This document shows, piece after piece, positions 16,011 to 62,507 of a stretch of 64,000 nucleotides of DNA. The stretch lies in the IMG/VR virus record IMGVR_UViG_3300046477_000550. The stretch is one strand, 5' to 3'. Below the pieces are notes generated by a model. The model searched no databases and had not been told where the DNA came from. It saw only the letters and a program-made list of their open reading frames with translations. Position 1 is the stretch's first letter. Each line of letters begins with the position of its first letter. The position numbers were made by a program, and so were the translations under genes. This DNA is from a virus.

Positions 16011-17027
16011 CTACAGCCCGATGTCCTCGCTGGCGGCGTCGGTCCACTTGTCGGCTTCGCGGATGTATCCCCAGAAGGCGGGGCTGTTCTCGGCGTGCCC
16101 GGACTGGGCGCGGATCTTCTCTTCGCGTTTCCCGGCTTTGCGGCTGGTGGTGATGAATCCGGCGCGCATCGAGTGGCCGGTCAGCCGGACGGCGACGCCT
16201 GCGCGCTCGGCGTTGCGGGCGATGATTTCGCGGACGGCTTCGGGGGACAGGGCGCGGTCGCCCATGTGCCCCCAGACGTCGATGGGGAGGAAGGCGGGTC
16301 CGGCTGTGATGGCTGCGGCGGCGCGCCAGTTGAGCCATGCGCGGACGGGGCAGGTGTCGACGTTCTTGCCGTAGCTGACGACGACGTCTCGGGGTGGCCG
16401 TCCTTTCACGGCGGGTACGTGCACGTCGAGGCCCTGGCTGACGTGGACGATGGATTCGGCGCGGAGTTCGGCGACTTCGGCGGAGCGTCCGGCGATGCCG
16501 AAGGCCATGAGCCAGAGGGCTCGGTCGCGGAGTCCGGTGAGTCCGTCGGCGACGGTGTTGTTCATTTGCCGGAGTTGTTCGGGGGTGACGGCGGCGGCTT
16601 TGCCGCGTCCGCGCGCCATGCGTTCGGGGTCGTTCTTCAGCGGCTTGAGTGCTTGCCGGGCGGCGACGGTGGCCGCCTTGGGGACTTCAACGCCGAGCCC
16701 GCGCGCGGTGACGGTAACGCCGGTGATCCTCCGGTCGATGGATGTGGGTGCGGCGAGTTTGATGGTGTCGAGCCAGACGACGAAGCCGACGAGGTTGCCT
16801 CTGGTGACTGCGGTCGACGGCATGCGGTGGCCGGTGCGTTCGGCGAGCCAGTCGTGGAACTCTTCCCAGAGGCCCCAGTCGTTGGCGTAGCCGCGCTTCG
16901 TGTTGTGGGGGCGGATGGCGTCGAGGTGCTTGTCGGCTGCCTCTTCCATCGCGGCGAGGACGGCGAGCGTCGCAGCGTCGTAGACGGCCGGGGTGGCGTC
17001 CGGCTGGTGCGGAACGAGGTCGGTCAC
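16011..17027 (-). CDS. second tyrosine recombinase (Xer/integrase-like)
   Basis: 338 aa with motifs AGRSAEV...LTGHSMRAGF...FWGYIRE. GTG overlaps the upstream stop (GTGA). Confidence 0.85.
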   Translation of the reverse strand: MTDLVPHQPDATPAVYDAATLAVLAAMEEAADKHLDAIRPHNTKRGYANDWGLWEEFHDWLAERTGHRMPSTAVTRGNLVGFVVWLDTIKLAAPTSIDRRITGVTVTARGLGVEVPKAATVAARQALKPLKNDPERMARGRGKAAAVTPEQLRQMNNTVADGLTGLRDRALWLMAFGIAGRSAEVAELRAESIVHVSQGLDVHVPAVKGRPPRDVVVSYGKNVDTCPVRAWLNWRAAAAITAGPAFLPIDVWGHMGDRALSPEAVREIIARNAERAGVAVRLTGHSMRAGFITTSRKAGKREEKIRAQSGHAENSPAFWGYIREADKWTDAASEDIGL

Positions 17028-18473: not shown

Positions 18474-20147
18474 TCAGGCGGCGCGGTTCTCCCACGGCCA
18501 GGCAGCGTCACGGGACGCTTCGAGCAAGGGGATCATCCGGAAGGCGGCGTCGGTGAGCCCGCCGAACGTGTGCCGCTGTCCGTGACCGGATGGCGCATGC
18601 CCGGCCTGGTACCCGGCGAGATTCCAGGTGTAGAGCGGCGTCGTCTGCGGGATGGACTGGTCGACTTCGGCGTGGTCGTGCCCGGCCTGCTCGTCGGTGA
18701 CGATGACGACGCGGTCGTGGCCGTGGAACTCCTGCCGGAGTGCAGCCGCCGTGTCGGTGCCGCCGCCGAGGAACCAGCCGCCGTCCTTCCACTTCTTCAC
18801 GTCGCTGAGGAGCGATCCGCCGCGGGTGAGCGGGAACGCCTTCGTCTTCGCGCCCGGAGCGTCGTTCACGTAGTAGCGGGCGCTGGAGAAGGACACGACG
18901 TCGGCCGTGGCGCAGCGTCGGCCGAGGGCGATCCCGAACAGGGCCGCGGCGTCCCAGCGCATCAGTGACCCGTCCTTGGAGAACGCGTCGTCCATCGAGC
19001 TGGACGTGTCCACCAGGATCAGCGTCCGGCCGCCGAGCTGCGGAATGTTGGCGAGTGACGCGGTCAGCGCCTTCTCCAGTGCGTGACCCCACCGCAGGGA
19101 CGGCGCCGCGTTGAACGCGGAGTAGAACCGCATCGGCAACTGCCGGGACTTCGCGACCTGCTCCGGGTCAGCGAGCATCGACACGACCTGTGCCGCGACC
19201 TTGTCGGAAACTCCAGCCTCGTCGAAGTTGCGCAGGTTCCGCAGCCGGGCCATGAACGGCATCGACGGGATGACCGCCTCCCACGCGGCCTTGTCCATCG
19301 GGCCCTGGAGCCAGCCGGCCACTGCTTCCCAGGTCATCTCCGCCATCGCCAGACGTCCGGGCGCGTCCAGCAGGATGCGGCGCCGGTCGGCCACGGGGTG
19401 CGCCATCAGGTTCGCCCGCCACCGGATTGTCATCAGCGACTCGGAGATCTCTCCGTTGCGGCCGTGGCGGCGGTCGATCGCATGCCGGAACAGGTCGCCC
19501 TGCCACGCCTTGCCCGTAGCCGGGGCCGCATGCACGAGTTCGAGGACGTCGCCGAAGCGGTAGCCCTTGGTCGCGGTGTCGTATTTCAGCAACGACCGCT
19601 CCGAGTAGAGCCGCTGGACGGCGTCGGCGATGCCGCGCTTCACCGGCTTGGGCAGCTTGCGGCCGTAGCGGGACGTCCAGTAGCCGAGCAACTCCCCCGG
19701 CTCGTCAGGACGCTGGAGGACGACGTCGATGACGCGACGGTTCCAACCGCCGTTCGTGGACGCGTCGGCCGCAGTCTCGCGGTTCCATCCCGCAGGGTCC
19801 GCTCCCTTGTCGCCTTCGAGCCGCGCCTTCACGAACTCGGCCGCACCGACGATCGCCGCAGTCCGCATGTTCCCTTCGCCGCGCAGCCAGCCGAGCAGGC
19901 CGACCGTCCACTCGGGGTCTTCGACGGCGAGCTGCCGGACGAGCTGGGTGAAGCGGTCGTCGCGGTCGCCGCCCTTCTCGTAGAACGCGTCCTGGCCAAC
20001 GAAGTTGGAGACGGCGAGCAGGAACAGCTCGGAGCGCGCGTCCCGGAGATGCCCGGTGGCGCCCTGGTGGGTGAGGGTCCGCTCCCCGGTGGTGGTCACG
20101 GGCGAGTGGGCGGCGGGTCGGGTCGAGCGCGTGTTGAAGCGCGACAT
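18474..20147 (-). CDS. rsr: Ro60 orthologue Rsr (TROVE domain plus vWA/MIDAS)
   Basis: 557 aa. TROVE-like N-terminal two thirds, then a vWA domain with the MIDAS motif LILVDTSSSMDD. Start taken as ATG 20147 after GAGGGG. Flanked by Y-RNA-like elements. Confidence 0.85.
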   Translation of the reverse strand: MSRFNTRSTRPAAHSPVTTTGERTLTHQGATGHLRDARSELFLLAVSNFVGQDAFYEKGGDRDDRFTQLVRQLAVEDPEWTVGLLGWLRGEGNMRTAAIVGAAEFVKARLEGDKGADPAGWNRETAADASTNGGWNRRVIDVVLQRPDEPGELLGYWTSRYGRKLPKPVKRGIADAVQRLYSERSLLKYDTATKGYRFGDVLELVHAAPATGKAWQGDLFRHAIDRRHGRNGEISESLMTIRWRANLMAHPVADRRRILLDAPGRLAMAEMTWEAVAGWLQGPMDKAAWEAVIPSMPFMARLRNLRNFDEAGVSDKVAAQVVSMLADPEQVAKSRQLPMRFYSAFNAAPSLRWGHALEKALTASLANIPQLGGRTLILVDTSSSMDDAFSKDGSLMRWDAAALFGIALGRRCATADVVSFSSARYYVNDAPGAKTKAFPLTRGGSLLSDVKKWKDGGWFLGGGTDTAAALRQEFHGHDRVVIVTDEQAGHDHAEVDQSIPQTTPLYTWNLAGYQAGHAPSGHGQRHTFGGLTDAAFRMIPLLEASRDAAWPWENRAA

Positions 20148-20183
20148 GAAAAAGCCCCTCACGTGGAGGGGAGGTCCAGCAGT

Positions 20184-20327
20184 GGGTGCCCGAGATCAAG
20201 GTCGGCTGCGGAGACGAAGCGCTCTGGGCCGCTGAGCTACGGAAGCCGTCAGGCTCCCGACGGGATTCGAACCCGCGTCTCTCTCTTAGCAGGAGAAGTA
20301 TCCGCCGCCTGCGCACCGGGCACCCCC
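20184..20327 (-). ncRNA. YrlA-like Y RNA with a circularly permuted tRNA-like module
   Basis: Minus strand shows a terminal helix GGGTGCCCG/CGGGCACCC and a T-arm GCGGGTTCGAATCCCGT (20260-20276). A closed acceptor stem GGGAGCC-TGAC-GGCTTCC lies at 20241-20258 and a D-arm GCTCAGCGGCCCAGAGC at 20221-20237. Ends are approximate. Confidence 0.75.
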
Positions 20328-23117: not shown

Positions 23118-24065
23118 TCAGGCTCCGTTCGCGTTGTTGCTGGGCGCCCACGGCCGCATCAGATCCGCCAACTCCTGGGCAGCAACAGCCGCCTCAGCCA
23201 GTCGAGGATTCGGAGCAGGAGTGGGCGCGGGAGGAGGGGTCGGCACCGGGACGGGCTGGGGCTGCGGCACGGGGTTGGCGGCGCCGGTCAGCGCCGCGAA
23301 GTCCGTGCCGAGGGTGTACAGGTCGAATCCGGAGATGTCCTTGCCGGACTTCGGGTCGATCATGTCGGGGGTGACGATGACCCAGCCCTCGTCGAAGTAC
23401 TTCCGGAAGAACGCCCAGGTCAGCTTCTGGACGGCACCCCAGGTGACGCACTCCAGTTCGGTCTCGTCGTAGGCGCCGACGGTGACGCAGTGGCCGTCCC
23501 TCGGTGCGGGCGCGCCCTTGACGACGTCCCACCGCTGCCCGTTGTTGAACTGGCTCATCGCGTAGTCGGGGAAGTTGAACCCGCAGTAGATCTGCCCGAA
23601 CAGGGTGATGGCCTGCTTGACCTGGGTCTGGTTGGACAGGTCGACCTTGGCGAAGGCGACGATCTTCTCGCCGAGGAAACCGTGCTTGCGCCAGTAGTCG
23701 AGGACGTCCTGACAGACCGCGCCCTGGTCGGTGTTCGGGTCGGTGGGGTCGTATCCGGTGATCGCCGTGTAGAAGGCGAGCGCCTGGGCGGTGTCGACCT
23801 TCAGGACGGTGCCCTGATTGACGTACACGTCGCCGATCCGCTTGTGAGCCACACCCGCACAGGTGCAGTCGCCGGCAACATCGTTCCCAAGCATCCCCCA
23901 GGCGCTGGCGGGAACCGGGTTGAGCCAGTCCGCCGAGGCGGGCGGGGCGGGCAGTGCGACGGCGTAGTTGCCGAACGCGAGGTGCAGCCGGGCAGGTTCG
24001 GCCGGACGCCGACCGCCCCGGAAGATGATGGTCAAGGGTGGCTCCGAGAGGGCGCGTTGGGGCAT
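23118..24065 (-). CDS. putative papain-like cysteine peptidase (second lysin)
   Basis: GNDVAGDCTCAGVAH nucleophile-like motif with a downstream DGHCVTVGAYD, and a Pro-rich C-terminal linker. Start uncertain. Confidence 0.55.
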   Translation of the reverse strand: MPQRALSEPPLTIIFRGGRRPAEPARLHLAFGNYAVALPAPPASADWLNPVPASAWGMLGNDVAGDCTCAGVAHKRIGDVYVNQGTVLKVDTAQALAFYTAITGYDPTDPNTDQGAVCQDVLDYWRKHGFLGEKIVAFAKVDLSNQTQVKQAITLFGQIYCGFNFPDYAMSQFNNGQRWDVVKGAPAPRDGHCVTVGAYDETELECVTWGAVQKLTWAFFRKYFDEGWVIVTPDMIDPKSGKDISGFDLYTLGTDFAALTGAANPVPQPQPVPVPTPPPAPTPAPNPRLAEAAVAAQELADLMRPWAPSNNANGA

Positions 24066-24111
24066 GCGAAAGGCCCGCGCACCATGCACGGGCCTCGGGG
24101 TGACGGTGGGG

Positions 24112-36105: not shown

Positions 36106-37482
36106 TCAGCTCGTCAGCGACGAGGAGACGCGGCTGATCCGGCCCGTGTACTTCGGCGCCCGCACCGCGAGCGCGCAGTCCGAGACGATCGCGTAGGGCA
36201 TCTGGTCCGGGGCGGACGTCGTCGGATACACATCCAAGGGCTCCAGCTCTCGGACGTAGGGCCGCAGCAGGAACTGGGGGTCGCGGGCGATGAGGTAGAT
36301 GTTCTCCGACCCCGCCGCCTGCGGCTTCATGGCCGCATTGGTGCCCACGTAGGCGGCCGGGATGTTGGCGGGAACGGTGGAGCCGTTCTTCGGGGTGAGC
36401 TTCGCGCCGTCGTCGAGGATCGACGTCGTGAGGATCGGCGTGACACCGTCCGCAGCGATACCGACGGTGGCGTCGACGTAGCCGAGGAACGTCTCCGCAG
36501 TCGTCGCCGTGGACCGGAACACCTTGTACAGGTTCGGCTGCGCGCCGTCGTAGCCGCCCGGCGTCGAGAACGACAGGGTGACCGTCGACGTGGCGCCCGT
36601 GGTGGTCTGGGAGACCTCGACGGACGGCAGGATCTCGCCCTGGCGGGCGATGACCGGCGCGATCTGGTAGTAGTACGTGGCCGCGGCCAGAGTGCCGCCG
36701 GTGGTGGCGGTCGCCGTGGTGACCGCACCCATCTGGTAGGACCGCGCCGACAGGAACGAGCTGGTCACCATCGGGATACCCCGGTAGGCCTGCACGTTGA
36801 GACCCGCGGCGACCTCGGTGGGGCTGAGGTAGCGCTGGTTGGCGATGGCGAGCTGCGCGATGCGCGACTCGGCGGTGGAGGACATGACGAACATCCAGCC
36901 CGGACCGTTGATCTTCATGGCGGCCTGCTGCTCCACCATGTCGATGAGCTTGTCGAGCCAGCCCAGCGACAGCGAGGCGTTCGCGGCGTCGGCCGCGTTC
37001 TGGGTGCCGCCGGAGAACGTGGACACGAGGCTGTCGAGGCCGTCGAACTGCGGGTAGCCGCCCAGCGACGTGGACCCGGAGTTGCCCCACAGGACGGCGT
37101 TCTCGATGTCCCAGTACAGGCCCTGGATGGAGCCCTCGATCTCCTGCGCCCGCAGGTCCCCGGCAAGTCCGCGGGTGACGGCCTGCGCGTAGCCGGTGAC
37201 GGCGCCGACGGACTGCAGGTTGCGGATCGTGAACTGGTTCTGCACGTAGGTCGAGTTGGTGACCGGGCGGGCCCCGCCGTCGGACACGAAGCCGCCTGCC
37301 GCGCGGGCGGTGCGCTGGTTGAAGTAGTAGACGTTGGAGTCCCACTTGCGGGTGGGGATGGCCCGCACGAGGGGGGCGTAGCGCCGCTGGTACTCCAGCA
37401 GCATCGGGTCGACGATGGTCGGGGTGAGGGCGGCTGCGCCTGCGGCGGTCAGCGCCTCGCGGAGTTCGGCCTGGCTGGGCAT
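36106..37482 (-). CDS. major capsid protein
   Basis: 458 aa starting at ATG 37482 after GGAAGG. Position and composition fit an actinophage major capsid protein. Confidence 0.8.
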   Translation of the reverse strand: MPSQAELREALTAAGAAALTPTIVDPMLLEYQRRYAPLVRAIPTRKWDSNVYYFNQRTARAAGGFVSDGGARPVTNSTYVQNQFTIRNLQSVGAVTGYAQAVTRGLAGDLRAQEIEGSIQGLYWDIENAVLWGNSGSTSLGGYPQFDGLDSLVSTFSGGTQNAADAANASLSLGWLDKLIDMVEQQAAMKINGPGWMFVMSSTAESRIAQLAIANQRYLSPTEVAAGLNVQAYRGIPMVTSSFLSARSYQMGAVTTATATTGGTLAAATYYYQIAPVIARQGEILPSVEVSQTTTGATSTVTLSFSTPGGYDGAQPNLYKVFRSTATTAETFLGYVDATVGIAADGVTPILTTSILDDGAKLTPKNGSTVPANIPAAYVGTNAAMKPQAAGSENIYLIARDPQFLLRPYVRELEPLDVYPTTSAPDQMPYAIVSDCALAVRAPKYTGRISRVSSSLTS

Positions 37483-37609
37483 GGTGTTGCCTTCCGGCAG
37501 TGGTGGGTATGGCGAAGCCCCGCGCACGGGGTGCGGGCGGGGCGGCGTGACCATCTCTGCCGAGCGGCACCAGCAGACGGCTGGCGGTCAGGTGGGGCGG
37601 GGCTGCGCG

Positions 37610-39451
37610 TCAGGCACGGTCTCCGAGAATGGCGCTCACGGTCGCCGGGGAGACGTGCGTGCGGAACTCCTCGTCGGTGTACTCGTGGAGCGGCTTCGCG
37701 GGCCAGCCCTCAGGGAGGCCCGCACCGGCGACCGGCGCAGTGTGCTCGGTGACCGGGGCGACGAGACCCTTGCGGGCCGGCCCGCCGGTCGCTTCGACGT
37801 GCTCCTGCACGGCCTTCGGCAGGGCGGCGGCGAGACCTTCGGAGACGAGGCGGCTGATGCGCTGCTCTTCGGTCTCGGCCACCTCCGCCGCAGCCGGGGC
37901 CGCGGCCTCGACGACGGTGTCGGCCGCCGGAGCGGACTCGGTGGTGGGTGCCGGAACGGCGGCCGGGGTGACGGCGGCGAGGAGCTGCTTGAACTGGTCG
38001 TCGGTCAGGTGGACCCCACCAGCGGCGGGGGCGGCGGCCGTGTCGGCTGCCGGGGTGGTGGACTCCGCCATGGCGGGCTCCTCTTCCTGGGTGGGGGTTT
38101 CGGCGACCGGTGAATCCGGCGCCGGAGTCTGGGTGCCGCCGTCGGCCAATCCAGCGGCAACAGCCGAACCGCTCTCGGCGAGTTGCACAGTCGGCGACTC
38201 AACGGCGGTCTCCATCGCGTCGTCGTCCTCGCCCATGCAGTGCACGCACTGGCCCTCGGCGCACTCGCACGGGCAGGCGCCAGGCGTCTCGGGGATCGCG
38301 CAGCCGCAGTCGCACGGGCACGGGGCGCCCGCGGCGGTCGCCGGTTCGTCGCCGTCCGGCGAACCCGGGGTGTCGACGTCGCCGTCCATGTCCGGGTCGA
38401 TGTTCGCCAGGGTCTGGGCGGCACCGGCCATCGCAGCGCGGCCGACGGCGTCGAGGTCGTGGGGGTCGAGCGAGTACGAGGAGACGGTGACCGTGGTCGG
38501 CCCGTTCGTCAGCGACACGTACAGGTTTCCGGCATCACCGGAGTCCATGCCCCAGCACTCGGCGAGAGCCTCGGTCACCTGGATGGCGGGCTCGATCAGC
38601 CAGCCCTCTTGGGTGTCGACCGTGACGCCGAACTTCTTCAGGGCCTTGACGATGCGCTGCTTGATCCGCTTGAGCTGGGCGGAAGTGTAGTCGCGGGCGT
38701 TATCGGCCTGCCCGATGTACGCCCATGCGGCTTTCGCCTTGGCCTTACTGGAGATGTCGTAGCGCTGCTTCTTGTCGGACTGGTAGCCCGGGTCGGCGTA
38801 GGCGGTGCTGTCTCCGGATAGGCCTGAGCCGCGCTTCGACACGGCCGGAGTGTCGGCCTCGGTCGTGGTGGTCACCAGCGCCTCCTGTACTGACTCATGG
38901 ATCAGCACCCGTCCGTCGGATGCCGTCTCCGCCGGGGCGCTGGCGGCCTCCGCGGGGGTGAATGTGTCGACCTGAGCGCCGGGCACGCCGGGCTTCCTCG
39001 TGAAATCAAGCCCATCGAGTTCCAAGTCGTCACTGGTCTCAACGGGCGAGCCGTCTGGTCCCGGCTCCCGCCGCACCTTTCCCACCCACGCCCCGCGGAT
39101 CGACACTCCGCGCAGGAACGGCGGCCCGTCGGTGTCGTCGACGAGAGCGGCGATCGTCTGGCCCGCCACCGTATTCACCAGGTCCGCGGTGTACTTCGCC
39201 GATCCGTCCTCCGCGAGGGTGACCGACGTGAGTCGACCGGCGATCTGCGTGGAATCGTCGTCGGCTGCATGGTGGGTGAGCATCGCCAGGGGCATCGAGC
39301 CCTCGTCGATGCGCTCTCGGGCCCGCTGTACGGCCTTCGCGATGTTCTCGACGGTGTAGAGGCGCCGGTTGCGGCTGATGCCGGGTACGAGCGCGGTCCC
39401 GGAGATGGTGCCGATCCGGCGCCCCATGATGCGTGCGGCCACTGCGGTCAC
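37610..39451 (-). CDS. capsid maturation protease / scaffold fusion
   Basis: GTG overlaps the upstream stop (GTGA). N-terminal prohead-protease-like region (GTALVPGISRNRRLYT...). C-terminal Ala/Pro/Glu-rich scaffold-like region with a Cys-rich insert. Confidence 0.65.
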   Translation of the reverse strand: MTAVAARIMGRRIGTISGTALVPGISRNRRLYTVENIAKAVQRARERIDEGSMPLAMLTHHAADDDSTQIAGRLTSVTLAEDGSAKYTADLVNTVAGQTIAALVDDTDGPPFLRGVSIRGAWVGKVRREPGPDGSPVETSDDLELDGLDFTRKPGVPGAQVDTFTPAEAASAPAETASDGRVLIHESVQEALVTTTTEADTPAVSKRGSGLSGDSTAYADPGYQSDKKQRYDISSKAKAKAAWAYIGQADNARDYTSAQLKRIKQRIVKALKKFGVTVDTQEGWLIEPAIQVTEALAECWGMDSGDAGNLYVSLTNGPTTVTVSSYSLDPHDLDAVGRAAMAGAAQTLANIDPDMDGDVDTPGSPDGDEPATAAGAPCPCDCGCAIPETPGACPCECAEGQCVHCMGEDDDAMETAVESPTVQLAESGSAVAAGLADGGTQTPAPDSPVAETPTQEEEPAMAESTTPAADTAAAPAAGGVHLTDDQFKQLLAAVTPAAVPAPTTESAPAADTVVEAAAPAAAEVAETEEQRISRLVSEGLAAALPKAVQEHVEATGGPARKGLVAPVTEHTAPVAGAGLPEGWPAKPLHEYTDEEFRTHVSPATVSAILGDRA

Positions 39452-39843
39452 CTTCCGATCAGCGCGATGGATGCCTGCGGGTAGACCGGGTTGGTGCCGC
39501 CGAGGGTCCAGGTGACGCGGCCCAGGTTCGGGAGGACCATGGCCGCCGTGCTGGGCATGTGGAGTCCGGCGAACGCGGAGGCACGCCCGGCCGATGTGGT
39601 CATCTGTGTGATCTTCGCGATGGCCGGATACCAGTTGCCGTCGGGGTCCTGCACGTCGAGTCCGACGTCGAGCGTGGGGGTCGTGCCGGTCGGCGTACCG
39701 ACAACTGCGACGGCGAGCCACACATCGCTGATGTCGGTCAGGCTGATGACCGGGCCGTTCGTTGTGGCGGCGCCGGACAGGGTGGGCGGCGTGCCGGATG
39801 GGGTCAGGTTCCACAAGACCCGGGCCGGGCGGTAGATGCTCAT
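39448..39843 (-). CDS. hypothetical head-module protein
   Basis: 131-aa beta-rich ORF. Confidence 0.65.
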   Translation of the reverse strand: MSIYRPARVLWNLTPSGTPPTLSGAATTNGPVISLTDISDVWLAVAVVGTPTGTTPTLDVGLDVQDPDGNWYPAIAKITQMTTSAGRASAFAGLHMPSTAAMVLPNLGRVTWTLGGTNPVYPQASIALIGR

Positions 39844-39856: not shown

Positions 39857-41323
39857 TCATGTGAACCAGGCGGCGAAGTGGCCGAGGTCGACGGATGCGG
39901 ATACGAAGCACCGGCATCGCGGGTGCGCGGGCCACTCCGGCAGGTCGCCGGGCGCCCACGGATTTCCGGCTTCGTTGGCCTCGCAAGCCGGACAGACGCG
40001 GCCGTCGCCGACTGACAGCCAGTCGCAGGTCAGTACGCCTTCGGACTGGTACAGGGCGAGCGCTCCCCCGGCGGCTGCGCTGGTGATGGCCCAGTCGGTG
40101 ATGAAGCCGACGTCGTCGTCCGGATCGTCTTCGTCGGGGGTGAGAGCGTCTTCGGCGGCGTCGGTCATGGTGTCGCGGTCGTCGCCACGGTCGGCGCTCT
40201 GCTGAAGGATCCGGGCGAGCGAGGCTTCTGCTCGCCGGATGAGGCGGGTGAGCCATGTGTCCACGGCTGCGCCTGCGTCGTCGAGGCGTTGCACGTCCTG
40301 GTAGGCGTCGGCGAAGGCGGCGTTCCAGTCGAGGCCTGCGCGTCCTGCCTGCTCGGCGGCGACGGCCACAGCGTTGACCATGCCCTCGGCGTGGCCTGCA
40401 TTGAGGGCGTCCCGGAGTGCGGCGCGGAGGGTGTGCCATGCGGGGAGGTTGGGGAGCGCGGCGAGCATGGCGGTTGCGGCCAGGGCTGCGGCGGTCTTCT
40501 GATCGTCGCTGTTGGCTTCGGTGAGTCCGACGCTGCGGCGGAAACTGTCGACGGTGGCGGTGATCGCGTCGCGGTCGACGAGTTGCCGCCAGGCGTCGGC
40601 GACGATCCGGGTGTGCTCGCGCAGTTTCTCCTCGCGGCGCCGGAAGAGGAGCGCCCACATCCCTTCGAGCTTGCCGAGGTCAACGGCGACTTCGAGGATG
40701 CGCGGATCGTCGGCATACTCGATCGCGGTCTGGACGGCGGCGGTGCTCGCGGCCTTCACTCGTTCCGTGAGCGGGCCTCCCGAGGCGGCCCACCCGGCAG
40801 CGAACGCCTCCCGCGCCGGGGCCGCGATGGGATGTTCCAGTGGGCTGTCGGTGCGGTCGGCGCCGTGGACTGCGGCCAGCGCGGCGAATTCCACCGGGGT
40901 AGCTTCGAGGCGGTCGAGAGGTGACGGCTCGTCGGCGGCGATGTAGGTCACGGTCATGTGGGCGCAATAGCCGTGGTCTCGCGGGATCTGGATGCCTCGT
41001 TCGGCGAGTGCGTCCAGGGTGTCGCGCCGCAGGTCTTCGAGGTCGGACGAGTCGATGAGAGCGACGATGACGTCCTTGTCACCGCCGGTGAAGCGAGCCA
41101 GTCCGGAGATCTGCGCCTTGACCGGCTTGCGGGCCGCCAGCTCTGCGACGACCTCGCGGAACTCGTCGCCATCAATGTCGTCCGCATCACCGAGGTAGAC
41201 GACCGTGACGTGCATTTCGTCGGGCGGGAGGCCGCCTTCGACTGCCAGCTTCTCGGCGACTTCGGGCGGCGGATAGAGGGCGATCATGCAGCCGTCGGAG
41301 TAGTCCGGGGATGTCACGGCCAC
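39857..41323 (-). CDS. 2H phosphoesterase (LigT-like) :: MuF/SPP1 gp7-like head morphogenesis fusion protein
   Basis: N-terminus has two H-x-T-x motifs (HVTVVY, HMTVTY). C-terminus has the MuF-type RVCPACEANEAGNPW...HPRCRC motif. Lies directly after the portal gene. Confidence 0.75.
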   Translation of the reverse strand: MAVTSPDYSDGCMIALYPPPEVAEKLAVEGGLPPDEMHVTVVYLGDADDIDGDEFREVVAELAARKPVKAQISGLARFTGGDKDVIVALIDSSDLEDLRRDTLDALAERGIQIPRDHGYCAHMTVTYIAADEPSPLDRLEATPVEFAALAAVHGADRTDSPLEHPIAAPAREAFAAGWAASGGPLTERVKAASTAAVQTAIEYADDPRILEVAVDLGKLEGMWALLFRRREEKLREHTRIVADAWRQLVDRDAITATVDSFRRSVGLTEANSDDQKTAAALAATAMLAALPNLPAWHTLRAALRDALNAGHAEGMVNAVAVAAEQAGRAGLDWNAAFADAYQDVQRLDDAGAAVDTWLTRLIRRAEASLARILQQSADRGDDRDTMTDAAEDALTPDEDDPDDDVGFITDWAITSAAAGGALALYQSEGVLTCDWLSVGDGRVCPACEANEAGNPWAPGDLPEWPAHPRCRCFVSASVDLGHFAAWFT

Positions 41324-41405: not shown

Positions 41406-42950
41406 TCAGGCGGCGTGCTCATCGACACCACCTCCCGGCAGTGATTCGAGCGCCTCACACAGGCGGCGCCGGTACAGGTCGCGGGCGGACTCGCGGGGTG
41501 GGTCGGCGCCCGGCGGCGGCTGACCTGCGGCCACCGCCTGCAACTGGGGCGGAACTGGGACCGGTTCCGGCTTCTGGACCGTTACCGGTTCGCCGTGTGC
41601 CGGGTCGGCCGGTTCCAAGGCGGTGCCACGCAGCTTGTTGGCGATGTTCGCCTTGCTCGCAGCGTCCATGTCCGCCCACTTGACCAGGTTTTCCCGGTCC
41701 ACGAGCACGGCCTGGTCGCCACCGTCGACGGCAGGTTCGCCAATGTCGGCGCGGTAGCGGTCGAGCGTCCAGGAGCCGTTACGGAGCCGTGTGTCGCGGA
41801 TCTTCTCGACGGTCTCACTGTCGCGCATGTCGACATCACGGAACTTCAGCTTCCAGCCCTCGACGCCGAACCCGTTCTTCGCCAGGTGGAAGTTGAGGGC
41901 TTCCAGGACCAGTTCGGCGAGCGGCTGGCAGGTGTTGAGCATGAAGGTGCGGTCCTGCGCCTCACCCGTTCCGCCACCCAAGTTGCCGCTTTCGATGATG
42001 CCGACCTTCGACGGGGGCACACCGTAGGAGGCGATGATCTCGTCGCGCTTCTGGTTGAGGAACGCCAGGTAGTCCATGGTGCGGGACTGCGACAGCTCAT
42101 CGACTGTCGCGCCGCCCTTGGTGTTGATCGGGTTGCCGATGTTGCGGGGTCCGATGTTGCGCTGTTGATACTGCGCGTTCCACCGGTTGATGTCCCCCGG
42201 CGAGGCCCCGGCCGGGTGGTCCACGTGCAGGACCGGCGGGCAGCCCTTCCGGAAGATCTCCTTCGACGTAGCAGCCGAGAAAAGCCACGACACGATCGGC
42301 AGCATCGCGGCCTGCGTCGGGCTGACACCGAACACCCCGGAGCGCGGCGAATCCAGCGAGATGTGGATGACGTCGCGCGGCTCGAACGTGGCCCGCTGGC
42401 CCAGCTCGGTCACCTGCACATAGCTGGTGATCGTGCCGTGCTCGTCGGCGATCGGCAGCATCGACGGGCAGTCCAGCGAATACAGGGCCACCGGCTGCTT
42501 ACCGACCCACACCACCTCAATGAACGCGTCACCGAAGACGAGGAGGTCGGTGATGACGCCGCGGAGGATCTGCCGGATGTTCTCCCGCGGATTGCAGTAG
42601 CCGATCATCCGCTCCAGCAGCAGCACCTGCTGCGGCTTGTCCGGCTGCTCGTCGTCGCCTTCACCGTCATCGGTATCCCAGTCGGTGACGAGACCGCCCG
42701 CGGTGATGGTGCGGGAGATGGCGTTGACGGACGCCCACGACCAGGGGCAGGCGAGATAGGCCTCGTAGAGCTGGTTGAGCGTCGAGCGGCGGTCGGACTG
42801 GGTGGCCGCGCCGATGCCCTGGTTGGATTCGGTGAGGCCGCCGGGGCTGATGCCGTACTCGTAGCCCGCACGTTCCGGAAGCTTCGCCGGGGCGGTCTCC
42901 AGTACTTCGTCGCTGGAGCGCAGGCCGTTCCACCAGGTGCGCAGACTCAT
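41406..42950 (-). CDS. portal protein
   Basis: 514 aa coupled to the terminase (ATGA overlap), with portal-like length and sequence. Confidence 0.85.
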   Translation of the reverse strand: MSLRTWWNGLRSSDEVLETAPAKLPERAGYEYGISPGGLTESNQGIGAATQSDRRSTLNQLYEAYLACPWSWASVNAISRTITAGGLVTDWDTDDGEGDDEQPDKPQQVLLLERMIGYCNPRENIRQILRGVITDLLVFGDAFIEVVWVGKQPVALYSLDCPSMLPIADEHGTITSYVQVTELGQRATFEPRDVIHISLDSPRSGVFGVSPTQAAMLPIVSWLFSAATSKEIFRKGCPPVLHVDHPAGASPGDINRWNAQYQQRNIGPRNIGNPINTKGGATVDELSQSRTMDYLAFLNQKRDEIIASYGVPPSKVGIIESGNLGGGTGEAQDRTFMLNTCQPLAELVLEALNFHLAKNGFGVEGWKLKFRDVDMRDSETVEKIRDTRLRNGSWTLDRYRADIGEPAVDGGDQAVLVDRENLVKWADMDAASKANIANKLRGTALEPADPAHGEPVTVQKPEPVPVPPQLQAVAAGQPPPGADPPRESARDLYRRRLCEALESLPGGGVDEHAA

Positions 42951-44469
42951 GGGGCTTCCACCGTCCCCCCGGCGCGCGGCGCGTCATCGTCGTCGAACCA
43001 CCAGGCGTCATCGTTCGGTGCGGTCTCCGCGGGGCGGACGGCCATCGTCGGGCCAAGCGGCTGCAGCACCTCGCCGATGGGCGCGGTCGGAACGTCGTCG
43101 AGGATGACGAATTCCGGGCCGGTGCCGAGGTTGGACAAGAGATAGCGAACAGCGTCGCTCGCATGATCATCTGCTGTGGTGTCGGCGTCCTCGGGGTCGC
43201 CCTTGGTGGCGTGCGGCAGGTTCGACAGCTCCCGGTACAGCTCGGTGACCGTCGAGAACATGTGCAGCTTCGGGCAGGTCGTCCAGCCGTGAGCCCGGTG
43301 GTGCGCACAGGCGGGCGCCTCGCCGAGGTAGGAGTGGACTCGCTGCCAGCCGTTGACGCGGCTCCCGGCGCCCTTGCCGGCCGGGGAGAGGTGTACGCCG
43401 TTGTCGGCGTACACCGAGGAGATCGGTTTGGCGTCGCCGCGGGTGGCCCACATGGCGTCGTCGGCGTACCGCACGGCGACATGTTCGCCGTCGGCTTCCG
43501 CTGCGAGGATCTGCTTGGCCTGCTCGTTTTCGCCGATGCCCCGCTGGTATATCTCCCGGTAGACCCAGACACGGCCGTCTTCGTCAACGGCTGCCCACAG
43601 GACAGCCCAGGGGGCGCTGAAGCCCCAGTCGATGCCGTTGTACCGCCGCCACGAGGCGGGCAGTGCGATCGGCTCGATGACGTGCCGGTCGCGCTTCAGC
43701 TCGGGGAACATCATTCCGGCGAACACGTCCCAGTCACCGTCCAGGAAGGCGGAGCGGAGTTTGCCGTCGAGGGCTTGGAGGTCTTGGGCGTACTCGGGGT
43801 TGACGTGCGGGTTGTCGGACAGCTTGGACGGGATGAAGCGCACGGTGCGGTTGCGGATGTCGGTGACGACGTTCGCCCCGTAGTTCGTGGGCTCGATATA
43901 GCGGGCCTTGACCGCGCCGTGGCCGGGGCCTCCCGGGTTGGTTCCGGAGCGGATCCCGAGGACGGGGATGTCGCGGCGGCCGGAGCGGAGGCGGGACTCC
44001 AGGAAGGAGCACACGTCGGGCGGGGTCAGGGTCCGCTCGTCGAAGATGAGCAGCTGGTACTGGCCGCCCTGACGCCGGGTGGCGTCCTGGACAGTCTCGG
44101 CATACCGGAACATGATCAGGCTGCCGTTCGGGAACCGCAGCTCGTACTCGGTACCGTTCCAGCGAGCCCCAAGATCCTTCGCGAAGTTGAGGTTGACCAA
44201 CTCGGCGATGAGCGACTCTTTCAGCTCGCCGTAGGTGCGGCGGAAGGCGCCGACGCGCAGCCCCGGGTACTGCATACACTCCCGGATCGCGTGCGCGGTC
44301 AGCGCCCTACTTTTCCCCCACCAGCCGCCCCACCGAACAGCACATCGAACTCGGTCGCGGCGTGGAACTCGTGCTGCTTCGGTGTCGGTATGTAGCCGAG
44401 CTGCCCGAATACGTCCTTCGGCTCGAAGGCCTGGGCTGCGAACTCAGCCCATTCGAGGGTGGCGGACAT
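42947..44469 (-). CDS. terminase large subunit, interrupted: needs a -1 shift at 44317-44311
   Basis: The N-terminal 56 codons (AAGGAGG RBS, ATG 44469) end ...FGGAAGGGKVGR-stop. The -1 frame continues GGGKSRALTAHAIRECMQYPGLRV... into the 442-aa ORF 42947-44275. Confidence 0.8.
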
Positions 44470-45959: not shown

Positions 45960-47210
45960 TCAGTTGTCGGCGTCCCAGCGGGTCCCCGTCAGCTGTGGTT
46001 GCCACCGGCCGGGCCGATCCGAGGCGGCCCAGCCCGGGCCGATGAGTTCGGCCTGCCACCGGGCGGGCCCGTCCTCGGCATCCCACCGGAGGTGAGGGCC
46101 GGTGACGTGGAACAGCGGGGCGGCCTGCCCCCCGGCCTGCCCCCCGGTCGGTACGGCGCCGGTGAATGCCCCGCCGCGGATGGGCAGCAGGCGCCGCCGA
46201 TGCGACCGGACAAACGGCACGGGCCACGCCGCCGCCTGTGCCTGCTGAAGCACGGGGGCGGCTATCCGGCCCCGTCGTGCCGCCGCCACGCGGGTTGCCC
46301 GCCGCGACAGCCACGCGGGCACCCATGCGGGTGCGGTAGGCGCTACGCCGGCGGGCGCGATCCTGGTGAACATGCCGCGGCGTGCCGGGGCCACGCGTCG
46401 TGCAGGCTGCCTGTACGGGGCCTGTACGGGCGGTACGGGACCGGTCGGAGCGGGTGTGGGGGTGAAGTAGTCGCTGCGTCGCCCGCACAGGGGGCGTGGG
46501 CGACGCGCGGACAGGTATCCGGGCGGCGCGGGCTGCTGTGCGGGAGCGGCTGCGGGCTGGGGCGTCCAGGTGAACCGGCCGCGGCGAAGGAACGCCAGCC
46601 GGATGCGCGGGCGGACCGGCTGCGGTGCGGCAGCCGGGGCAGTGCCGGCGGGCGGCACGGGTAGAAAGATGCCGCGGCGCCCACCTGTGGAACGCAGACG
46701 GCTCCGGGAGACCGTACCGGGCGCCCAGGCCGGGGTGGCGGGTGCTGCTACTTGGGGCGGGGTCCAGGTGAACTCGCCCCGGCGTGCGAACAGGGCCCGC
46801 AGGCGCGGGCGCGACATCTGCGGCACCGTCGACGGCTGGGTGGGCGCTGCTGTCGGGGGTGTCCAGGTGTAGTGGCCCCGCTGGGCGGGGAGTGAGCGGC
46901 GGCGCGCGGAGGGCGCCCGGACTGGCGGTGCCGGGGTGAGCCATGGCGGGTCGAAGTAGTCCCGGCGCCGGACTTGGACCAGCCGGACCGTTACGCGCCG
47001 GATGAAGCCGGGGACGGCGGCCGGCGCAGCCGGGGCGGACGGCGGGGGCGGTGCGGTGAAGGAGCGGCCTCGCCGGAGCCACAGAGCCCGGGGGCGCCGC
47101 CCCTCGACGAAAGCCGGAGCCCAGGGCGGCACCTGGGCCGTCTGCTGGGCTGGAGGAACGTATTGGAATCTGCCGCGGCGGACATAAGGGCCGCGCCACC
47201 GCCGCGACAT
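45960..47210 (-). CDS. Arg/Pro-rich tandem-repeat protein
   Basis: 416 aa with about 10 copies of the degenerate unit RRG-x-F-(T)W-TPP...AP. The C-terminus carries RW(D/Q) repeats. An alternative frame is also open. Confidence 0.55.
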   Translation of the reverse strand: MSRRWRGPYVRRGRFQYVPPAQQTAQVPPWAPAFVEGRRPRALWLRRGRSFTAPPPPSAPAAPAAVPGFIRRVTVRLVQVRRRDYFDPPWLTPAPPVRAPSARRRSLPAQRGHYTWTPPTAAPTQPSTVPQMSRPRLRALFARRGEFTWTPPQVAAPATPAWAPGTVSRSRLRSTGGRRGIFLPVPPAGTAPAAAPQPVRPRIRLAFLRRGRFTWTPQPAAAPAQQPAPPGYLSARRPRPLCGRRSDYFTPTPAPTGPVPPVQAPYRQPARRVAPARRGMFTRIAPAGVAPTAPAWVPAWLSRRATRVAAARRGRIAAPVLQQAQAAAWPVPFVRSHRRRLLPIRGGAFTGAVPTGGQAGGQAAPLFHVTGPHLRWDAEDGPARWQAELIGPGWAASDRPGRWQPQLTGTRWDADN

Positions 47211-48650: not shown

Positions 48651-48722
48651 TTGGCCCGGCAGGACTTGAACCTGCAACTCGCGGCTGGGGGCCGCTGCTC
48701 TGCCGTTTGAGCTATCGGGCCA
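48651..48722 (-). tRNA. non-canonical tRNA-like gene (5-nt or C33 anticodon loop; Gly-CCC-like at best)
   Basis: Acceptor TGGCCCG/CGGGCCA, D-arm GCTC-AAACGGCA-GAGC and T-arm GCAGG-TTCAAGT-CCTGC look normal. The anticodon arm is GCGGC-CCCCA-GCCGC, and there is an extra nucleotide at positions 8-9. Confidence 0.55.
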
Positions 48723-48863: not shown

Positions 48864-48937
48864 TTGGCCCGCCAGGTCTCGAACCTGGCGCCTCCGCCTT
48901 ATCAGGACGGCGCTCTAACCAGATGAGCTACGGGCCA
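48864..48937 (-). tRNA. tRNA-Ile (GAU), no encoded CCA
   Basis: Clean cloverleaf: acceptor TGGCCCG/CGGGCCA, D-arm GCTC-ATCTGGTTA-GAGC, anticodon arm CCGTC-CTGATAA-GGCGG, T-arm CCAGG-TTCGAGA-CCTGG. Confidence 0.85.
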
Positions 48938-59707: not shown

Positions 59708-61942
59708 TCAGTGGTTGACGAGCTGGTAGGTGCCGCGACTGCCGGCGGGTTCGACGTGTCCGGCCTGGTGGAGGTCACCCATGACGTTGTTGATGCTGCC
59801 GGGGGCGACGTCGGGCATCCGCTTGCGGACGTCCCTGAGGGCCATGGGTCCGTCGGCGAGGAGGTCGAGGATGCGGTCCTTGATGCTGCCGGCGGAGGGC
59901 TCGTCGTCGTCGTCGAGGAAGTCGCGGTAGGCCGCGTCGCCGTCCTCAGCCCCGGAGTCGAGGTCCCCGGCGAGGAGCGCTTCGGCGTGGGGTAGCCAGC
60001 GGGCGTAGGCATCCCGGAAGACGCGGTCCTCTTCCGGGGTGAGGGTGGGCGTGGGCGCCGATTCCATGAGGGCGATGAGACCCGGGTAGGTCTTGTCCAC
60101 CTTGCGGGCCTTGAAGACCCGGGAGAGGAAGAGGACGCCGCCCTGGATGATGTTGGCCATGCCTGCGGTGATCGGACCGTTCTTTGCCTCCTCGCCGCTG
60201 AAGGCGGCGTCGATGTCGCTGCCGGTTTTGAAGTAGCGCTGGATCGGGTCGAGGGTGACGCCGGGCGGGAGTACTCCGTCGGTGGCCATGTGCTGGGTTG
60301 TGCTGCTGTTTGTCCTGCCCAGCCAGACCGTGCCGTTTTTCGCGTTGGCGCGGATCTTGTCCTTGTCGCCGAGTTCAGCCAAGTGGATGTTCTGGGCGGC
60401 GAAGCGGATGCCCTTGCCGAGCTTGCGGCCGGTTGCCTGGGCATCGCTGACGAGGCCGGACACCCAGTTGCGGAAGGCGCGGGGGACGTCTGCATCGGAG
60501 GACAGGATCCGGTTGAGCTCGTCGAAGGTGCCGTTGACCAGGGCCCACGGTTTGCCGATCTCGAAGGAGCCCCAGCCGTTGGCGGCGGAGATCTTCTCCC
60601 GGTAGGCGCCGAGTTCGTTGAAGGCGGCGAGGGTCGCGCCGGTGGCTGCGATGCCTTTGCCGAAGTGGCAGACGCGGCCGTCGGCCTCAGGCAGGGACAT
60701 GCCGTTCTGGGCGTCGGCGACGATGGATACGACGCCGGAGAGCCGTTCGGCGACGAGCACGGTGAGCAGGGCTACCGACTTGCCGGCTCCCATGGCGCCG
60801 ACGAAAAGGTCGGTGACCGCACCCATCTCGGGGTCGTACAGCGCCATGCGGGCGGGGCGGCCGTCGTGACGGACGCCGATCTGAATGGTGCCGTCGGTAC
60901 GCATGGTGAGGTCTTCGGCGGTGGCTTCGCGGACCTCCATCAGCGGATGGTTCTTGTAGATGGAGATGATGCCGTCGCCGAGGCCATCGGTTTCGACCAT
61001 GACCAGCGACTTGTCCTTGTAGCCGATGGCGCGGGTGATCTGCGTCTGGTTCAGCTGGATCATCTGACCGTCGGGAGCGGTGACGCGCAGAGCGGTGCGG
61101 TTGAGTTCGGTCTTGTAGCCGGTGAGGTGCATGCCAGCGGCGCCCCCGTTGGGGCGGGCCAGCCGCTCGTAGAAGAGGCGCTCGGCCGGGTTCTGCTGCG
61201 CCTGCTCGACGGCGTCGAGGGTGGGCCGGGCGGTGAGCAGCTTGCGTCCGGGGCCGGAGCCTTTGATGAGGCTCAATGTGACGGTGCCGGGCGGCAGGTC
61301 GAAGACGGCGGCCAGCGCGGTCGCGTTGAGGTCGGGGACGGCTTCACCGGCTGGGGCGACGACGATGCCCCAGAAGTCGGGGTGCCGGGCGTCGTACTGG
61401 GTGACGGTGGTCAGCAGCGTGCTGCTGGTGGACCGGGCGTCGGCCCACTGCCGCGTCCGGTGCGCGCCGTAGGTGGCGAGCGGTGCGGCCTCCAGGGCGG
61501 GGATTTCCGCCGAAGCGTTCGGGAGTGCATCGGGCATCAGGTTGGTGGAGTGGGTGAGCGGCACGGTGGCCGCCATGAGCGCGCCCCATCCGGCGGGCAG
61601 CACGTACTCCCACCAGGGGGCGCCGGGGTGGAGCAGGTCGGCGAGGTAGACGAGGGCGCCGGTCAGCGGCGGCACGACACGCTGGGCGGCGCGCAGGAAC
61701 CCTGAGTGGCCTTCCGGGTGCTCCCACTTGCCGTACAGCCAGGCGAACGAGCCGATGGCGACACCGGCGGCGCCGAGGTGGGCGGGCCACCAGCCGTCAT
61801 GCTGGGGGGTGACGGTGATGCCGAGGGTGGCCGCACCGTAGAGGAGGCGCTCGAAGCGGGCACGGCGCCGGATGCTGCGGGCGGGAACGAGCCGCGGGCC
61901 GTCGTGTACGGCCAGGTCGGGCGTCTTGTCGGTGACGGCCAC
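59708..61942 (-). CDS. traB: TraB-type FtsK/SpoIIIE dsDNA translocase
   Basis: 744 aa with N-terminal TM segments, Walker A VGAMGAGKS and a C-terminal winged-helix-like tail (MALRDVRKRMPDVAPGSINNVMGDLHQAGHV). Confidence 0.8.
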   Translation of the reverse strand: MAVTDKTPDLAVHDGPRLVPARSIRRRARFERLLYGAATLGITVTPQHDGWWPAHLGAAGVAIGSFAWLYGKWEHPEGHSGFLRAAQRVVPPLTGALVYLADLLHPGAPWWEYVLPAGWGALMAATVPLTHSTNLMPDALPNASAEIPALEAAPLATYGAHRTRQWADARSTSSTLLTTVTQYDARHPDFWGIVVAPAGEAVPDLNATALAAVFDLPPGTVTLSLIKGSGPGRKLLTARPTLDAVEQAQQNPAERLFYERLARPNGGAAGMHLTGYKTELNRTALRVTAPDGQMIQLNQTQITRAIGYKDKSLVMVETDGLGDGIISIYKNHPLMEVREATAEDLTMRTDGTIQIGVRHDGRPARMALYDPEMGAVTDLFVGAMGAGKSVALLTVLVAERLSGVVSIVADAQNGMSLPEADGRVCHFGKGIAATGATLAAFNELGAYREKISAANGWGSFEIGKPWALVNGTFDELNRILSSDADVPRAFRNWVSGLVSDAQATGRKLGKGIRFAAQNIHLAELGDKDKIRANAKNGTVWLGRTNSSTTQHMATDGVLPPGVTLDPIQRYFKTGSDIDAAFSGEEAKNGPITAGMANIIQGGVLFLSRVFKARKVDKTYPGLIALMESAPTPTLTPEEDRVFRDAYARWLPHAEALLAGDLDSGAEDGDAAYRDFLDDDDEPSAGSIKDRILDLLADGPMALRDVRKRMPDVAPGSINNVMGDLHQAGHVEPAGSRGTYQLVNH

Positions 61943-61983: not shown

Positions 61984-62496
61984 TCAGTAGACTTCGTTGA
62001 ACTGGGCTTTCGGCTGCTTTACGCCGCCGGGCAGGGCCTTGACGGTTTCGTGGATGCCGCCGTACTCGGACTGGTGGGCGTCACGGACGCCGTTGGCGTT
62101 GGCTTCCATGCCGTCGGCGGCGTTGGCAACTTCGCCGGAGGCTTCGGCAACCCGGTCGAAGGCGGCGGCGACCTCAAGAGCCTGGGCCTGGAAGCGGGCG
62201 TCGACGCCGGCCTGGGCGAGGTGTCCGGCGAGGCGTCGGGCACGCTGCGCGTCGTGGTGCATGCGCGCCTTGAGGAGGTGCAGCTGCTCCTTGAGGATGG
62301 CGGCCGCGGCGGCGAGGGCCATGATGCGCAGGGCGAGGGTGACGAAGTTGAGGATGCCGCTGATGGCGCCTCCCCAGCTCATCCGCTGGGGCTGGTTGTT
62401 TCCAGTGGCGGCCGGGAGGTTGTCGCTGTCTGCGGCGGCAGCTTCGGCGCCGGTCTGGACGGAAGTGGGTTCGATCGCGTTACTGTCGTCGCTCAT
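61984..62496 (-). CDS. hypothetical protein with a central TM segment
   Basis: 170 aa starting MSDDSNAIEP. The ORF-track upstream extension is Arg-rich junk. Confidence 0.65.
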   Translation of the reverse strand: MSDDSNAIEPTSVQTGAEAAAADSDNLPAATGNNQPQRMSWGGAISGILNFVTLALRIMALAAAAAILKEQLHLLKARMHHDAQRARRLAGHLAQAGVDARFQAQALEVAAAFDRVAEASGEVANAADGMEANANGVRDAHQSEYGGIHETVKALPGGVKQPKAQFNEVY

Positions 62497-62507
62497 CGTC
62501 GTCTGCC

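Follow-up and report, generated by a model that had tools for sequence, protein, structure and literature searches.

A 2H phosphoesterase domain fused to a divergent MuF-like head protein in a Streptomyces-type phage: a candidate packaged and ejected enzyme

A stretch of 64,000 nucleotides from IMG/VR virus record IMGVR_UViG_3300046477_000550 (hereafter, the window) encodes, directly after its portal gene, a two-domain protein in which an N-terminal LigT-like 2H phosphoesterase domain precedes a C-terminal body of about 320 residues. From knowledge of its wider family, we infer that this body is a divergent member of the MuF/SPP1-gp7 family, and we refer to the protein as 2H-MuF. Its gene is a 488-codon open reading frame (ORF) with a GTG start on the minus strand (39857-41323), located within the late head operon. 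The 2H active site is almost fully conserved among homologues, the domain is present in some members of the MuF clade and absent from others, and a related head-module 2H domain has been detected in purified virions of another actinophage. By analogy with better-known systems, these features suggest that 2H-MuF may be packaged in the capsid and ejected with the DNA, with a substrate of the immune-nucleotide type, a reading to which we assign a probability close to, though short of, an even chance.

The sequence-only reading of this gene had described a 488-aa protein encoded after the portal, with an N-terminal LigT-like 2H domain and two HxT motifs at a spacing typical of 2H enzymes, and all of these points stand. 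The portal is identified by PF04860, and PF13563 (2'-5' RNA ligase/2H superfamily) covers residues 34-134 of 2H-MuF with E=2.2e-11 and 44.5 bits, above its gathering cutoff of 27; the same profile is found in 76 of 82 family members. Weaker profile matches within the 2H domain involve LigT_PEase, Acb1 and 2H-SAK, and the match to phrog_2659 (E=4.8e-18) is the best among PHROG families annotated 'RNA ligase'. The histidines of the two HxT motifs, H38 and H122, lie 84 residues apart, as in LigT-type enzymes in the alignments. The same reading had named conservation of these motifs among its tests, and we counted it over 76 full-length homologues of 40-90% identity. H38 and T40 are kept in all 76, H122 in 74 and T/S124 in 72, and further kept positions include R77 (76/76) as well as F78, H117, G118 and R157 (75/76 each). 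Such conservation points to an active site under purifying selection; a degenerate or inactive domain was ruled out on the same grounds, and the domain is apparently catalytically active. A database search returned more than 200 full-length homologues, the closest mainly from Streptomyces genomes, which public databases label just '2'-5' RNA ligase family protein'.

Since a phmmer search against PDB sequences returned just marginal 2H matches (E 0.04 or worse), a fold search was needed. An AlphaFold2 model built from 82 sequences reached a mean predicted local distance difference test (pLDDT) value of 94.2 and a predicted template-modeling (TM) score of 0.81, and among the 50 PDB matches listed by Foldseek, ranks 1-49 were all 2H-fold proteins. 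These include a Deinococcus radiodurans 2',3'-cyclic phosphodiesterase (CPDase; 5h7e, E=2.1e-6, TM score 0.68 on target), a Thermus thermophilus 2'-5' RNA ligase-like protein (1iuh, E=3e-6), Escherichia coli LigT (5ldm, E=4e-5), a phosphodiesterase of Burkholderia phage BCSR5 (9q2g, E=2e-4), the rotavirus VP3 2'-5' phosphodiesterase (4ye2, E=2e-4), Acb1 (7t26, E=1e-3), human and yeast Usb1 (4h7w, 5v1m, 6d31 and 6pgl, E=1e-3 to 1e-2), AKAP18 (5jj2 and 2vfk, E=2e-3 to 8e-3) and the Arabidopsis cyclic nucleotide phosphodiesterase acting on Appr>p (1jh6, E=6.7e-3). The literature collection searched contained nothing on entry 9q2g. Comparison of a predicted structure with LigT and Acb1 had been proposed as a check of the earlier reading, and the model matches both; the 2H fold of Acb1, which that reading had mentioned, is also documented in print (Hobbs 2022, PMC9117128). 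In a fold search of BFVD, the top matches to the 2H part were actinophage 2H proteins, with root-mean-square deviations of 2.2-3.4 Å. At the level of sequence profiles and predicted structure, membership of the 2H superfamily is established.

The profiles are less specific about function. The LigT/ThpR equivalog TIGR02258 scores 36.8 bits (E=3.4e-9), below its cutoff of 65.7, and the Acb1 profile PF23474 scores 21.3 bits (E=2.4e-4), below its gathering cutoff of 27; PF23474 matches 62 of 82 homologues at E<=0.1, with a best E-value of 1.4e-6. Because the scores of the window protein lie under both thresholds, its sequence does not point to a substrate.

The C-terminal body had likewise been assigned to the MuF/SPP1 gp7 type, and this assignment is upheld by family-level profile matches, predicted fold, a conserved Cys/His motif and the position of the gene after the portal. 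The window protein aligns with TIGR01641 (phageSPP1_gp7) at E=9.5e-4, colinear with profile positions 3-105 of 109, with a score of 19.5 bits that falls below the curated cutoff of 39.65, and a PF04233 profile search of the same protein gave no match. Among the homologues, TIGR01641 is detected in 75 of 82 at E<=0.1 (best 1.5e-9) and PF04233 in 23 of 82, while TIGR01641 is the sole family matched by 78 more distant stand-alone relatives, 28 of which reach E<=1e-5 (best 1.1e-10). Positions 440-711 of phrog_2662, a portal-MuF fusion family, align with residues 199-480 (E=4.7e-7). BFVD fold matches extend over 270-320 columns (E 5e-5 to 3e-4, TM score on target 0.35-0.47) to proteins named 'Minor capsid protein' and 'Phage head morphogenesis domain', to the 'Capsid morphogenesis protein' of Listeria phage LP-018 and to a MuF-ADP-ribosyltransferase protein of Xanthomonas phage Xp12; the 50 PDB matches listed by Foldseek included no solved structure of a MuF protein. 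In the motif CPACEAN...HPRCRC, residues C444, C447, H467, C470, R471 and C472 are invariant across 82 sequences. The MuF gene directly follows the portal gene in the window, in the 66.6-kb soil-metagenome contig of the Joint Genome Institute (JGI) that the window matches, in a Streptomyces aureus prophage and in 2H-less relatives, an arrangement also found in SPP1 and Mu. Comparison by hhalign of the family alignments with the single sequences of SPP1 gp7 and Mu gp30 aligned just the short ...NCRC segment (E 0.04-0.35, probability ~1%); this comparison being uninformative, MuF membership rests on the family-level TIGR01641 and PF04233 matches, on fold and on synteny.

Relatives of 323-331 aa, 60-76% identical to the window protein over the last two thirds of its length, have no 2H domain, and those at 60-61% identity begin exactly at the domain boundary; the genes of these relatives directly follow the portal gene and are accompanied by no separate 2H gene. 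The MuF body alone was searched against 1.84 billion cluster representatives, yielding 478 relatives at E<=1e-3. Among the best 150, the majority stand alone, with lengths of 300-345 aa and a start at the same boundary, and about 35 carry an N-terminal extension of ~165-175 aa, in which both HxT/S motifs are present in nearly all cases. The notion that the C-terminal extensions of long relatives are all effectors had to be rejected in part, given that 10 of 24 long members carry an intein (PF14890/Hint) just ahead of the terminal ...NCRC motif (e.g., P0125 and P0121); other long members carry ADP-ribosyltransferase (ART; three members), NUDIX, PI3/PI4-kinase-like or SAP/Rho_N DNA-binding domains. 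One relative, P0207 (JGI metagenome 3300047160 contig, gene 5588-16669), is a typical polyvalent protein of 3,693 aa with the architecture 2H-MuF-SAP/Rho_N/HeH-ART-NUDIX, encoded in the slot between the portal gene and the DUF6582 protease/scaffold gene of a related phage. Judging from these architectures, the 2H domain is an optional cargo add-on to the MuF body, as in polyvalent head-packaged effector proteins. The clade spans Streptomyces prophages and soil metagenomes. When the complete protein was compared by tblastn with 50,697 phage records, only its 2H part, and not the MuF body, was matched at E<=1e-5, and the clade therefore offers no isolated phage for virion data.

The 2H domain itself matches sequences in 358 isolated actinophage genomes (Mycobacterium 206, Gordonia 110, Streptomyces 17, Arthrobacter 16, and others). 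In the 60 records listed, the corresponding proteins are mostly annotated as 'RNA ligase', with a few called protease, portal, 'aldolase' or hypothetical; some domains are hidden in proteins annotated 'capsid maturation protease and MuF-like fusion protein'. The domain, located within or beside head genes, belongs to a family of phosphoesterases, which makes 'RNA ligase' a misleading name. Its nearest relatives in sequence are the 2H domains of actinophage head-module proteins, at 28-37% identity across about 120-155 residues. In Streptomyces phage BayC, gp11 (1,197 aa, encoded after the portal) combines a PF04233 MuF domain at residues 120-246 (43.5 bits, above cutoff) with a following 2H domain at residues 302-411. 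In Gordonia phages GMA6 (orf12) and Chidiebere (gp25), a portal-MuF fusion gene, a 2H gene and a VIP2-like ART gene occur in succession, with one 72-aa ORF between the portal-MuF fusion and the 2H gene in Chidiebere. These proteins resemble 2H-MuF in their close 2H domains and head-module location, and differ from it in that the 2H domain follows MuF, lies at the C-terminus of a large protein or is encoded by a separate gene, and in that their MuF parts are not close relatives of the window's.

One of these actinophage proteins provides virion data. Gordonia phage GMA2 orf10 (NC_070761.1, 2829-5480; 883 aa), encoded directly after the portal and annotated in its record as 'head maturation protease', has a C-terminal 2H domain with motifs HLTL at 756 and HITA at 836. 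Mass spectrometry of purified GMA2 virions detected this protein with 29.4% coverage (Dyson et al., 2015; PMC4524720, S5 Table). We mapped the published GMA2 peptide SEVGDYDAYTPHITAVTGQQAR to orf10 residues 825-846, which contain the second HxT motif of the 2H domain. Mature virions of one actinophage, at least, thus physically contain a head-module 2H domain, which serves as an analogy for the window protein.

Taken together with what is known of MuF proteins, these observations suggest how 2H-MuF might work. SPP1 gp7 binds the portal, through which a few copies of it reach the interior of the procapsid; assembly proceeds without it, but only about 25% of the virions that lack it are infectious (PMC6316719, PMC5576092). 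MuF is also regarded as carrying fused enzymes whose delivery is believed to take place at infection (PMC5576092, PMC5512222). By the same route, the MuF body of the window protein would dock on the portal, its expected partner, during procapsid assembly, enclosing a few enzyme copies in the head. At infection, 2H-MuF would leave with the DNA, ahead of any phage gene expression, and its 2H domain would then act on a nucleotide substrate of the host, cleaving phosphodiester or 2',3'-cyclic-phosphate bonds independently of metal. With low certainty, we favor as that substrate a cyclic or 2'-5'-linked oligonucleotide immune signal produced by the cyclic-oligonucleotide-based antiphage signaling system (CBASS), by type III CRISPR or by related systems, which would make the window protein a pre-delivered counter-defense enzyme. 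The functional proposal of the sequence-only reading, an injected enzyme that either destroys cyclic-nucleotide signals or heals tRNA ends, is plausible and compatible with the evidence.

Two lines of evidence incline us toward immune signals. Acb1 is a 2H enzyme that degrades 3'3'-cyclic GMP-AMP (cGAMP) and other CBASS signals (Hobbs 2022, PMC9117128), and LigT-like enzymes of avian poxviruses degrade immune nucleotides (PMC11410667); breakdown by 2H enzymes has thus been proven for cGAMP, for other CBASS signals and for 2'-5' oligoadenylate. The second line is the set of genes in the window: PHROGs and Pfam scans of ~20 of its larger ORFs detected no RNA ligase, RtcB or kinase, a result that leaves absence unproven, several large ORFs having no match at all, and that agrees with the report that 2H domains of the polyvalent type are never associated with RNA ligases (PMC5512222).

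Several points weigh against a packaged enzyme directed at immune nucleotides. Many CBASS systems fire late, so that an enzyme delivered early would have no special advantage against them. Virion presence and ejection within the close family of the window protein rest on analogy, and the GMA2 mass spectrometry can serve only as such, because orf10 has a different architecture (C-terminal 2H domain, no Pfam MuF match). The TIGR01641 score of the window protein itself is the subthreshold one given above. If 2H-MuF is present at one or two copies per virion, as is SPP1 gp7, the enzyme dose would be small. By fold and profile, the nearest characterized 2H enzymes are cellular RNA 2',3'-cyclic phosphodiesterases of the LigT/CPDase type (5h7e, 1iuh, 5ldm), not Acb1. 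Finally, published MuF toxins carry their cargo C-terminally (PMC5576092), whereas the window protein carries it N-terminally.

The preference for LigT-type structures also speaks for an alternative in which 2H-MuF is packaged and delivered in the same manner but acts on RNA, either opening the 2',3'-cyclic phosphates that anticodon nucleases of the host or toxin RNases leave at RNA ends, for tRNA resealing by a host ligase, or acting in the manner of Usb1, as an RNase against host RNAs, for instance CRISPR RNAs. We judge this alternative unlikely, though a serious rival. The best structure and profile matches of the 2H domain are RNA 2',3'-cyclic phosphodiesterases (5h7e, 1iuh and E. coli LigT; TIGR02258 E=3.4e-9), but the TIGR02258 score (36.8 against 65.7 bits) lies far under the LigT/ThpR equivalog cutoff. 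The HxT spacing of 84 is LigT-like, compared to 69 between H44 and H113 of Acb1, and an RNase role is one of the two options put forward by Iyer et al. (2017; PMC5512222); the same authors nonetheless report that polyvalent-type 2H domains are never linked to RNA ligases. The phage also encodes a Ro60/TROVE protein beside a possible Y RNA, which suggests that RNA quality control matters to it. Healing without sealing, however, amounts to no repair, and the phage would therefore have to rely on a ligase of its host. The scans of window ORFs detected neither an RNA ligase nor RtcB nor a polynucleotide kinase.

We consider it improbable that 2H-MuF is not an injected effector at all, but a late-made protein that acts in the producing cell, where it would, for example, remove immune nucleotides triggered by capsid, protease or terminase, or have an assembly role, the MuF fusion providing only co-expression or local tethering. 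The location of the gene in the late head operon and the low copy number expected in the head would fit this explanation, and in the literature retrieved, virion assembly proteins and proteases of phages are linked to the activation of CBASS. Stand-alone 2H genes, however, would suit a cytoplasmic role equally well, the fusion partner is a capsid-targeting MuF protein in a clade that also carries classic injected cargo (ART, NUDIX), and the 2H domain of GMA2 orf10 is present in purified virions. The least probable reading, which we hold to be very unlikely, is a role in an NAD+/ADP-ribose conflict toolkit, in which the 2H domain would hydrolyze ADP-ribose 1''-2'' cyclic phosphate or related cyclic phosphates derived from ADP-ribose alongside ART and NUDIX cargo. 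2H, ART and NUDIX do share one polypeptide in P0207, the Gordonia phage 2H gene adjoins a VIP2-like ART gene, the fold search also matched 1jh6, the plant cyclic phosphodiesterase for Appr>p (E=6.7e-3), and 2H has been counted within the NAD-ADP-ribose network (PMC9503650), but ART and NUDIX are both missing from the window protein and from the genes next to it, the 1jh6 match is weaker than those to LigT/CPDase, and domain co-occurrence in polyvalent proteins is promiscuous, so that a shared pathway need not follow.

Neither the 2H-MuF architecture nor the proposal of a packaged enzyme is new, both having been published by Aravind's group. Iyer, Burroughs, Anand, de Souza and Aravind (2017, J Bacteriol; PMC5512222) described 2H domains fused to MuF or portal proteins and suggested either an RNase role or degradation of nucleotides from host counter-invader systems, and Iyer et al. 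(2022, Viruses; PMC9503650) advanced nearly the same hypothesis of packaged, injected and immune-nucleotide-degrading 2H-MuF or 2H-portal fusions. The defining traits of polyvalent proteins (Iyer 2017), namely an effector fused to a virion-addressing domain, a late gene context and variable domains among orthologues, are all seen in the family of the window protein, which represents the minimal two-domain form of these fusions, one in which the 2H domain precedes a divergent MuF. The N-terminal cargo, and a MuF clade so far encountered only in prophages and metagenomes, are minor peculiarities.

Comparison with individual systems places the protein between several known types. With SPP1 gp7 and Mu gp30 it shares a gene position after the portal, a TIGR01641-colinear core, the ...P-x-H-P-x-C-R-C motif and a predicted fold that matches minor capsid and head morphogenesis proteins; it differs in having an extra CxxC pair, a long helical N-terminal part and an N-terminal enzyme, SPP1 gp7 being a single-domain protein. 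As in the MuF polymorphic toxins (Jamet et al., 2017, BMC Biol; PMC5576092), MuF would be a capsid-addressing module for a variable enzyme on a temperate element, but in those systems the toxin is C-terminal and followed by a small downstream immunity gene, while the window protein has N-terminal cargo and no obvious toxin. Acb1, the phage T4/FBB1 anti-CBASS nuclease (PF23474; 7t26), is likewise phage-encoded and shares the 2H fold and the HxT/HxT tetrad. It is, however, a stand-alone protein of ~150 aa with a C-terminal lid and a His spacing of 69, in contrast to the spacing of 84 and the fusion to a 320-aa body in the window protein, and its fold match is weaker than that of LigT/CPDase. The LigT/ThpR and CPDase enzymes (5ldm, 5h7e, 1iuh) provide the best solved-structure matches (E 2e-6 to 1e-4, TM score 0.54-0.68 on target) and the same motif spacing, yet share just 16-19% identity with the window's 2H domain, which, unlike them, is fused to a virion protein.

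We found no experimental work on packaged 2H proteins or packaged anti-signaling enzymes in the searchable literature. Should the favored reading be correct, the clade might provide the first demonstrated counter-defense enzyme carried in the capsid and co-delivered with the DNA against nucleotide immune signaling (cyclic-oligonucleotide or 2'-5' oligoadenylate-like), acting before phage gene expression; we regard this as doubtful, with a chance well below even. Counter-defense against signaling systems would then begin at time zero, whereas the known anti-CBASS, anti-Pycsar and anti-Thoeris proteins are, to our knowledge, all made after infection. The value of the clade lies in offering a concrete, testable example of an already stated concept: the protein is compact and modeled with very high confidence, Streptomyces prophages commonly carry it, and the relatives without a 2H domain are natural controls.

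The coordinates of the gene, its domains and the surrounding head module are collected in Table 1. Translation may begin slightly downstream of the first GTG: a Shine-Dalgarno-like AGGGGG lies 5 nt 5' of a second GTG (codon 3; GTG at 41317), and the product is for that reason probably 486 aa long. The JGI gene call begins at Met13 and yields 476 aa, which is probably too short, given that the residues N-terminal of Met13 are kept in homologues (consensus MASPDYSDGCMIALYPPP). On the minus strand, the module runs in the order large terminase, portal, 2H-MuF, 131-aa gene, DUF6582 protease/scaffold-like gene, SU10-type major capsid protein and tail genes. A mechanically called 734-codon ORF (37610-39814, minus strand) comprises two genes, the 131-aa gene, read in another frame, and the 605-aa DUF6582 gene. 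The 131-aa gene has no PHROG match and no database match. It was considered and ruled out as an immunity protein: a similar 135-aa gene also follows the 2H-less MuF gene of one relative (L004), and the 131-aa gene is therefore not tied to the 2H domain.

Table 1. Coordinates of the 2H-MuF gene, its predicted domains and motifs, and neighboring head-module genes in the window.
Feature	Coordinates	Strand	Basis
Whole gene: 2H phosphoesterase + MuF/gp7-like minor head protein	39857..41323	-	ORF list; stop codon 39857-39859
N-terminal LigT-like 2H domain, residues ~11-162	40838..41293	-	PF13563, phrog_2659, Foldseek, BFVD
Catalytic motif I, H38-V-T40-V	41201..41212	-	Translation check
Catalytic motif II, H122-M-T124-V	40949..40960	-	Translation check
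MuF/SPP1-gp7-like body, residues 165-488, mainly helical	39860..40831	-	Stand-alone relatives, phrog_2662, BFVD
Core aligning with TIGR01641 phageSPP1_gp7, residues 371-474	39902..40213	-	TIGR01641
Cys/His motif C444-P-A-C447 ... H467-P-R-C470-R-C472, residues 444-472	39908..39994	-	Alignment
Large terminase subunit gene	42947..44275	-	Terminase_6C weak; syntenic gene in relatives matches Terminase_6N
Portal gene, directly upstream of 2H-MuF gene	41406..42950	-	PF04860 E=1.2e-28; phrog_12 E=2.7e-48
131-aa gene directly downstream of 2H-MuF gene	39448..39843	-	Third-codon-position GC content 0.89; JGI gene call
605-aa head maturation protease/scaffold-like gene with DUF6582	37610..39427	-	PF20223 E=6.9e-11; phrog_207 E=1.1e-7; JGI start, ATG at 39427
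Major capsid protein gene, SU10-type	36106..37554	-	PF17236 E=2.3e-6; phrog_752 E=1.2e-48

Beyond the head module, the window contains two ORFs for tyrosine recombinases (Phage_integrase), located ~5 kb apart on opposite strands at 9663-10964 (+) and 16011-17138 (-). On account of these two genes the phage is predicted to be temperate, and it is taken to be of Streptomyces type, with a high-GC actinobacterial host. Five large minus-strand ORFs of 323-744 aa (59708-61942, 61984-63753, 45960-47210, 390-1373 and 23118-24089) gave no Pfam match at E<=0.001, and the first three of them no PHROGs match either. The TROVE-domain protein (Ro60/Rsr-like; PF05731 E=1.8e-14) is encoded by a 562-aa ORF at 18474-20162 (-). 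Directly upstream on the same strand (20199-20324), ARAGORN predicts a 'tRNA-Ser(gct)' of 74 nt, which is rejected by the tRNA model of Rfam, and the Rfam YrlA (Y RNA-like) model aligns end to end at 20199-20308 with a score below threshold (25.7 against 69 bits, E=0.003); the ORF and the upstream RNA may constitute a phage-borne Ro60/Y-RNA pair. The early region contains two bona fide tRNA genes, Gly-CCC and Ile-GAT, at 48652-48721 (-) and 48864-48937 (-), and a DUF3799/PD-(D/E)XK nuclease gene is located at 1262-2122 (-).

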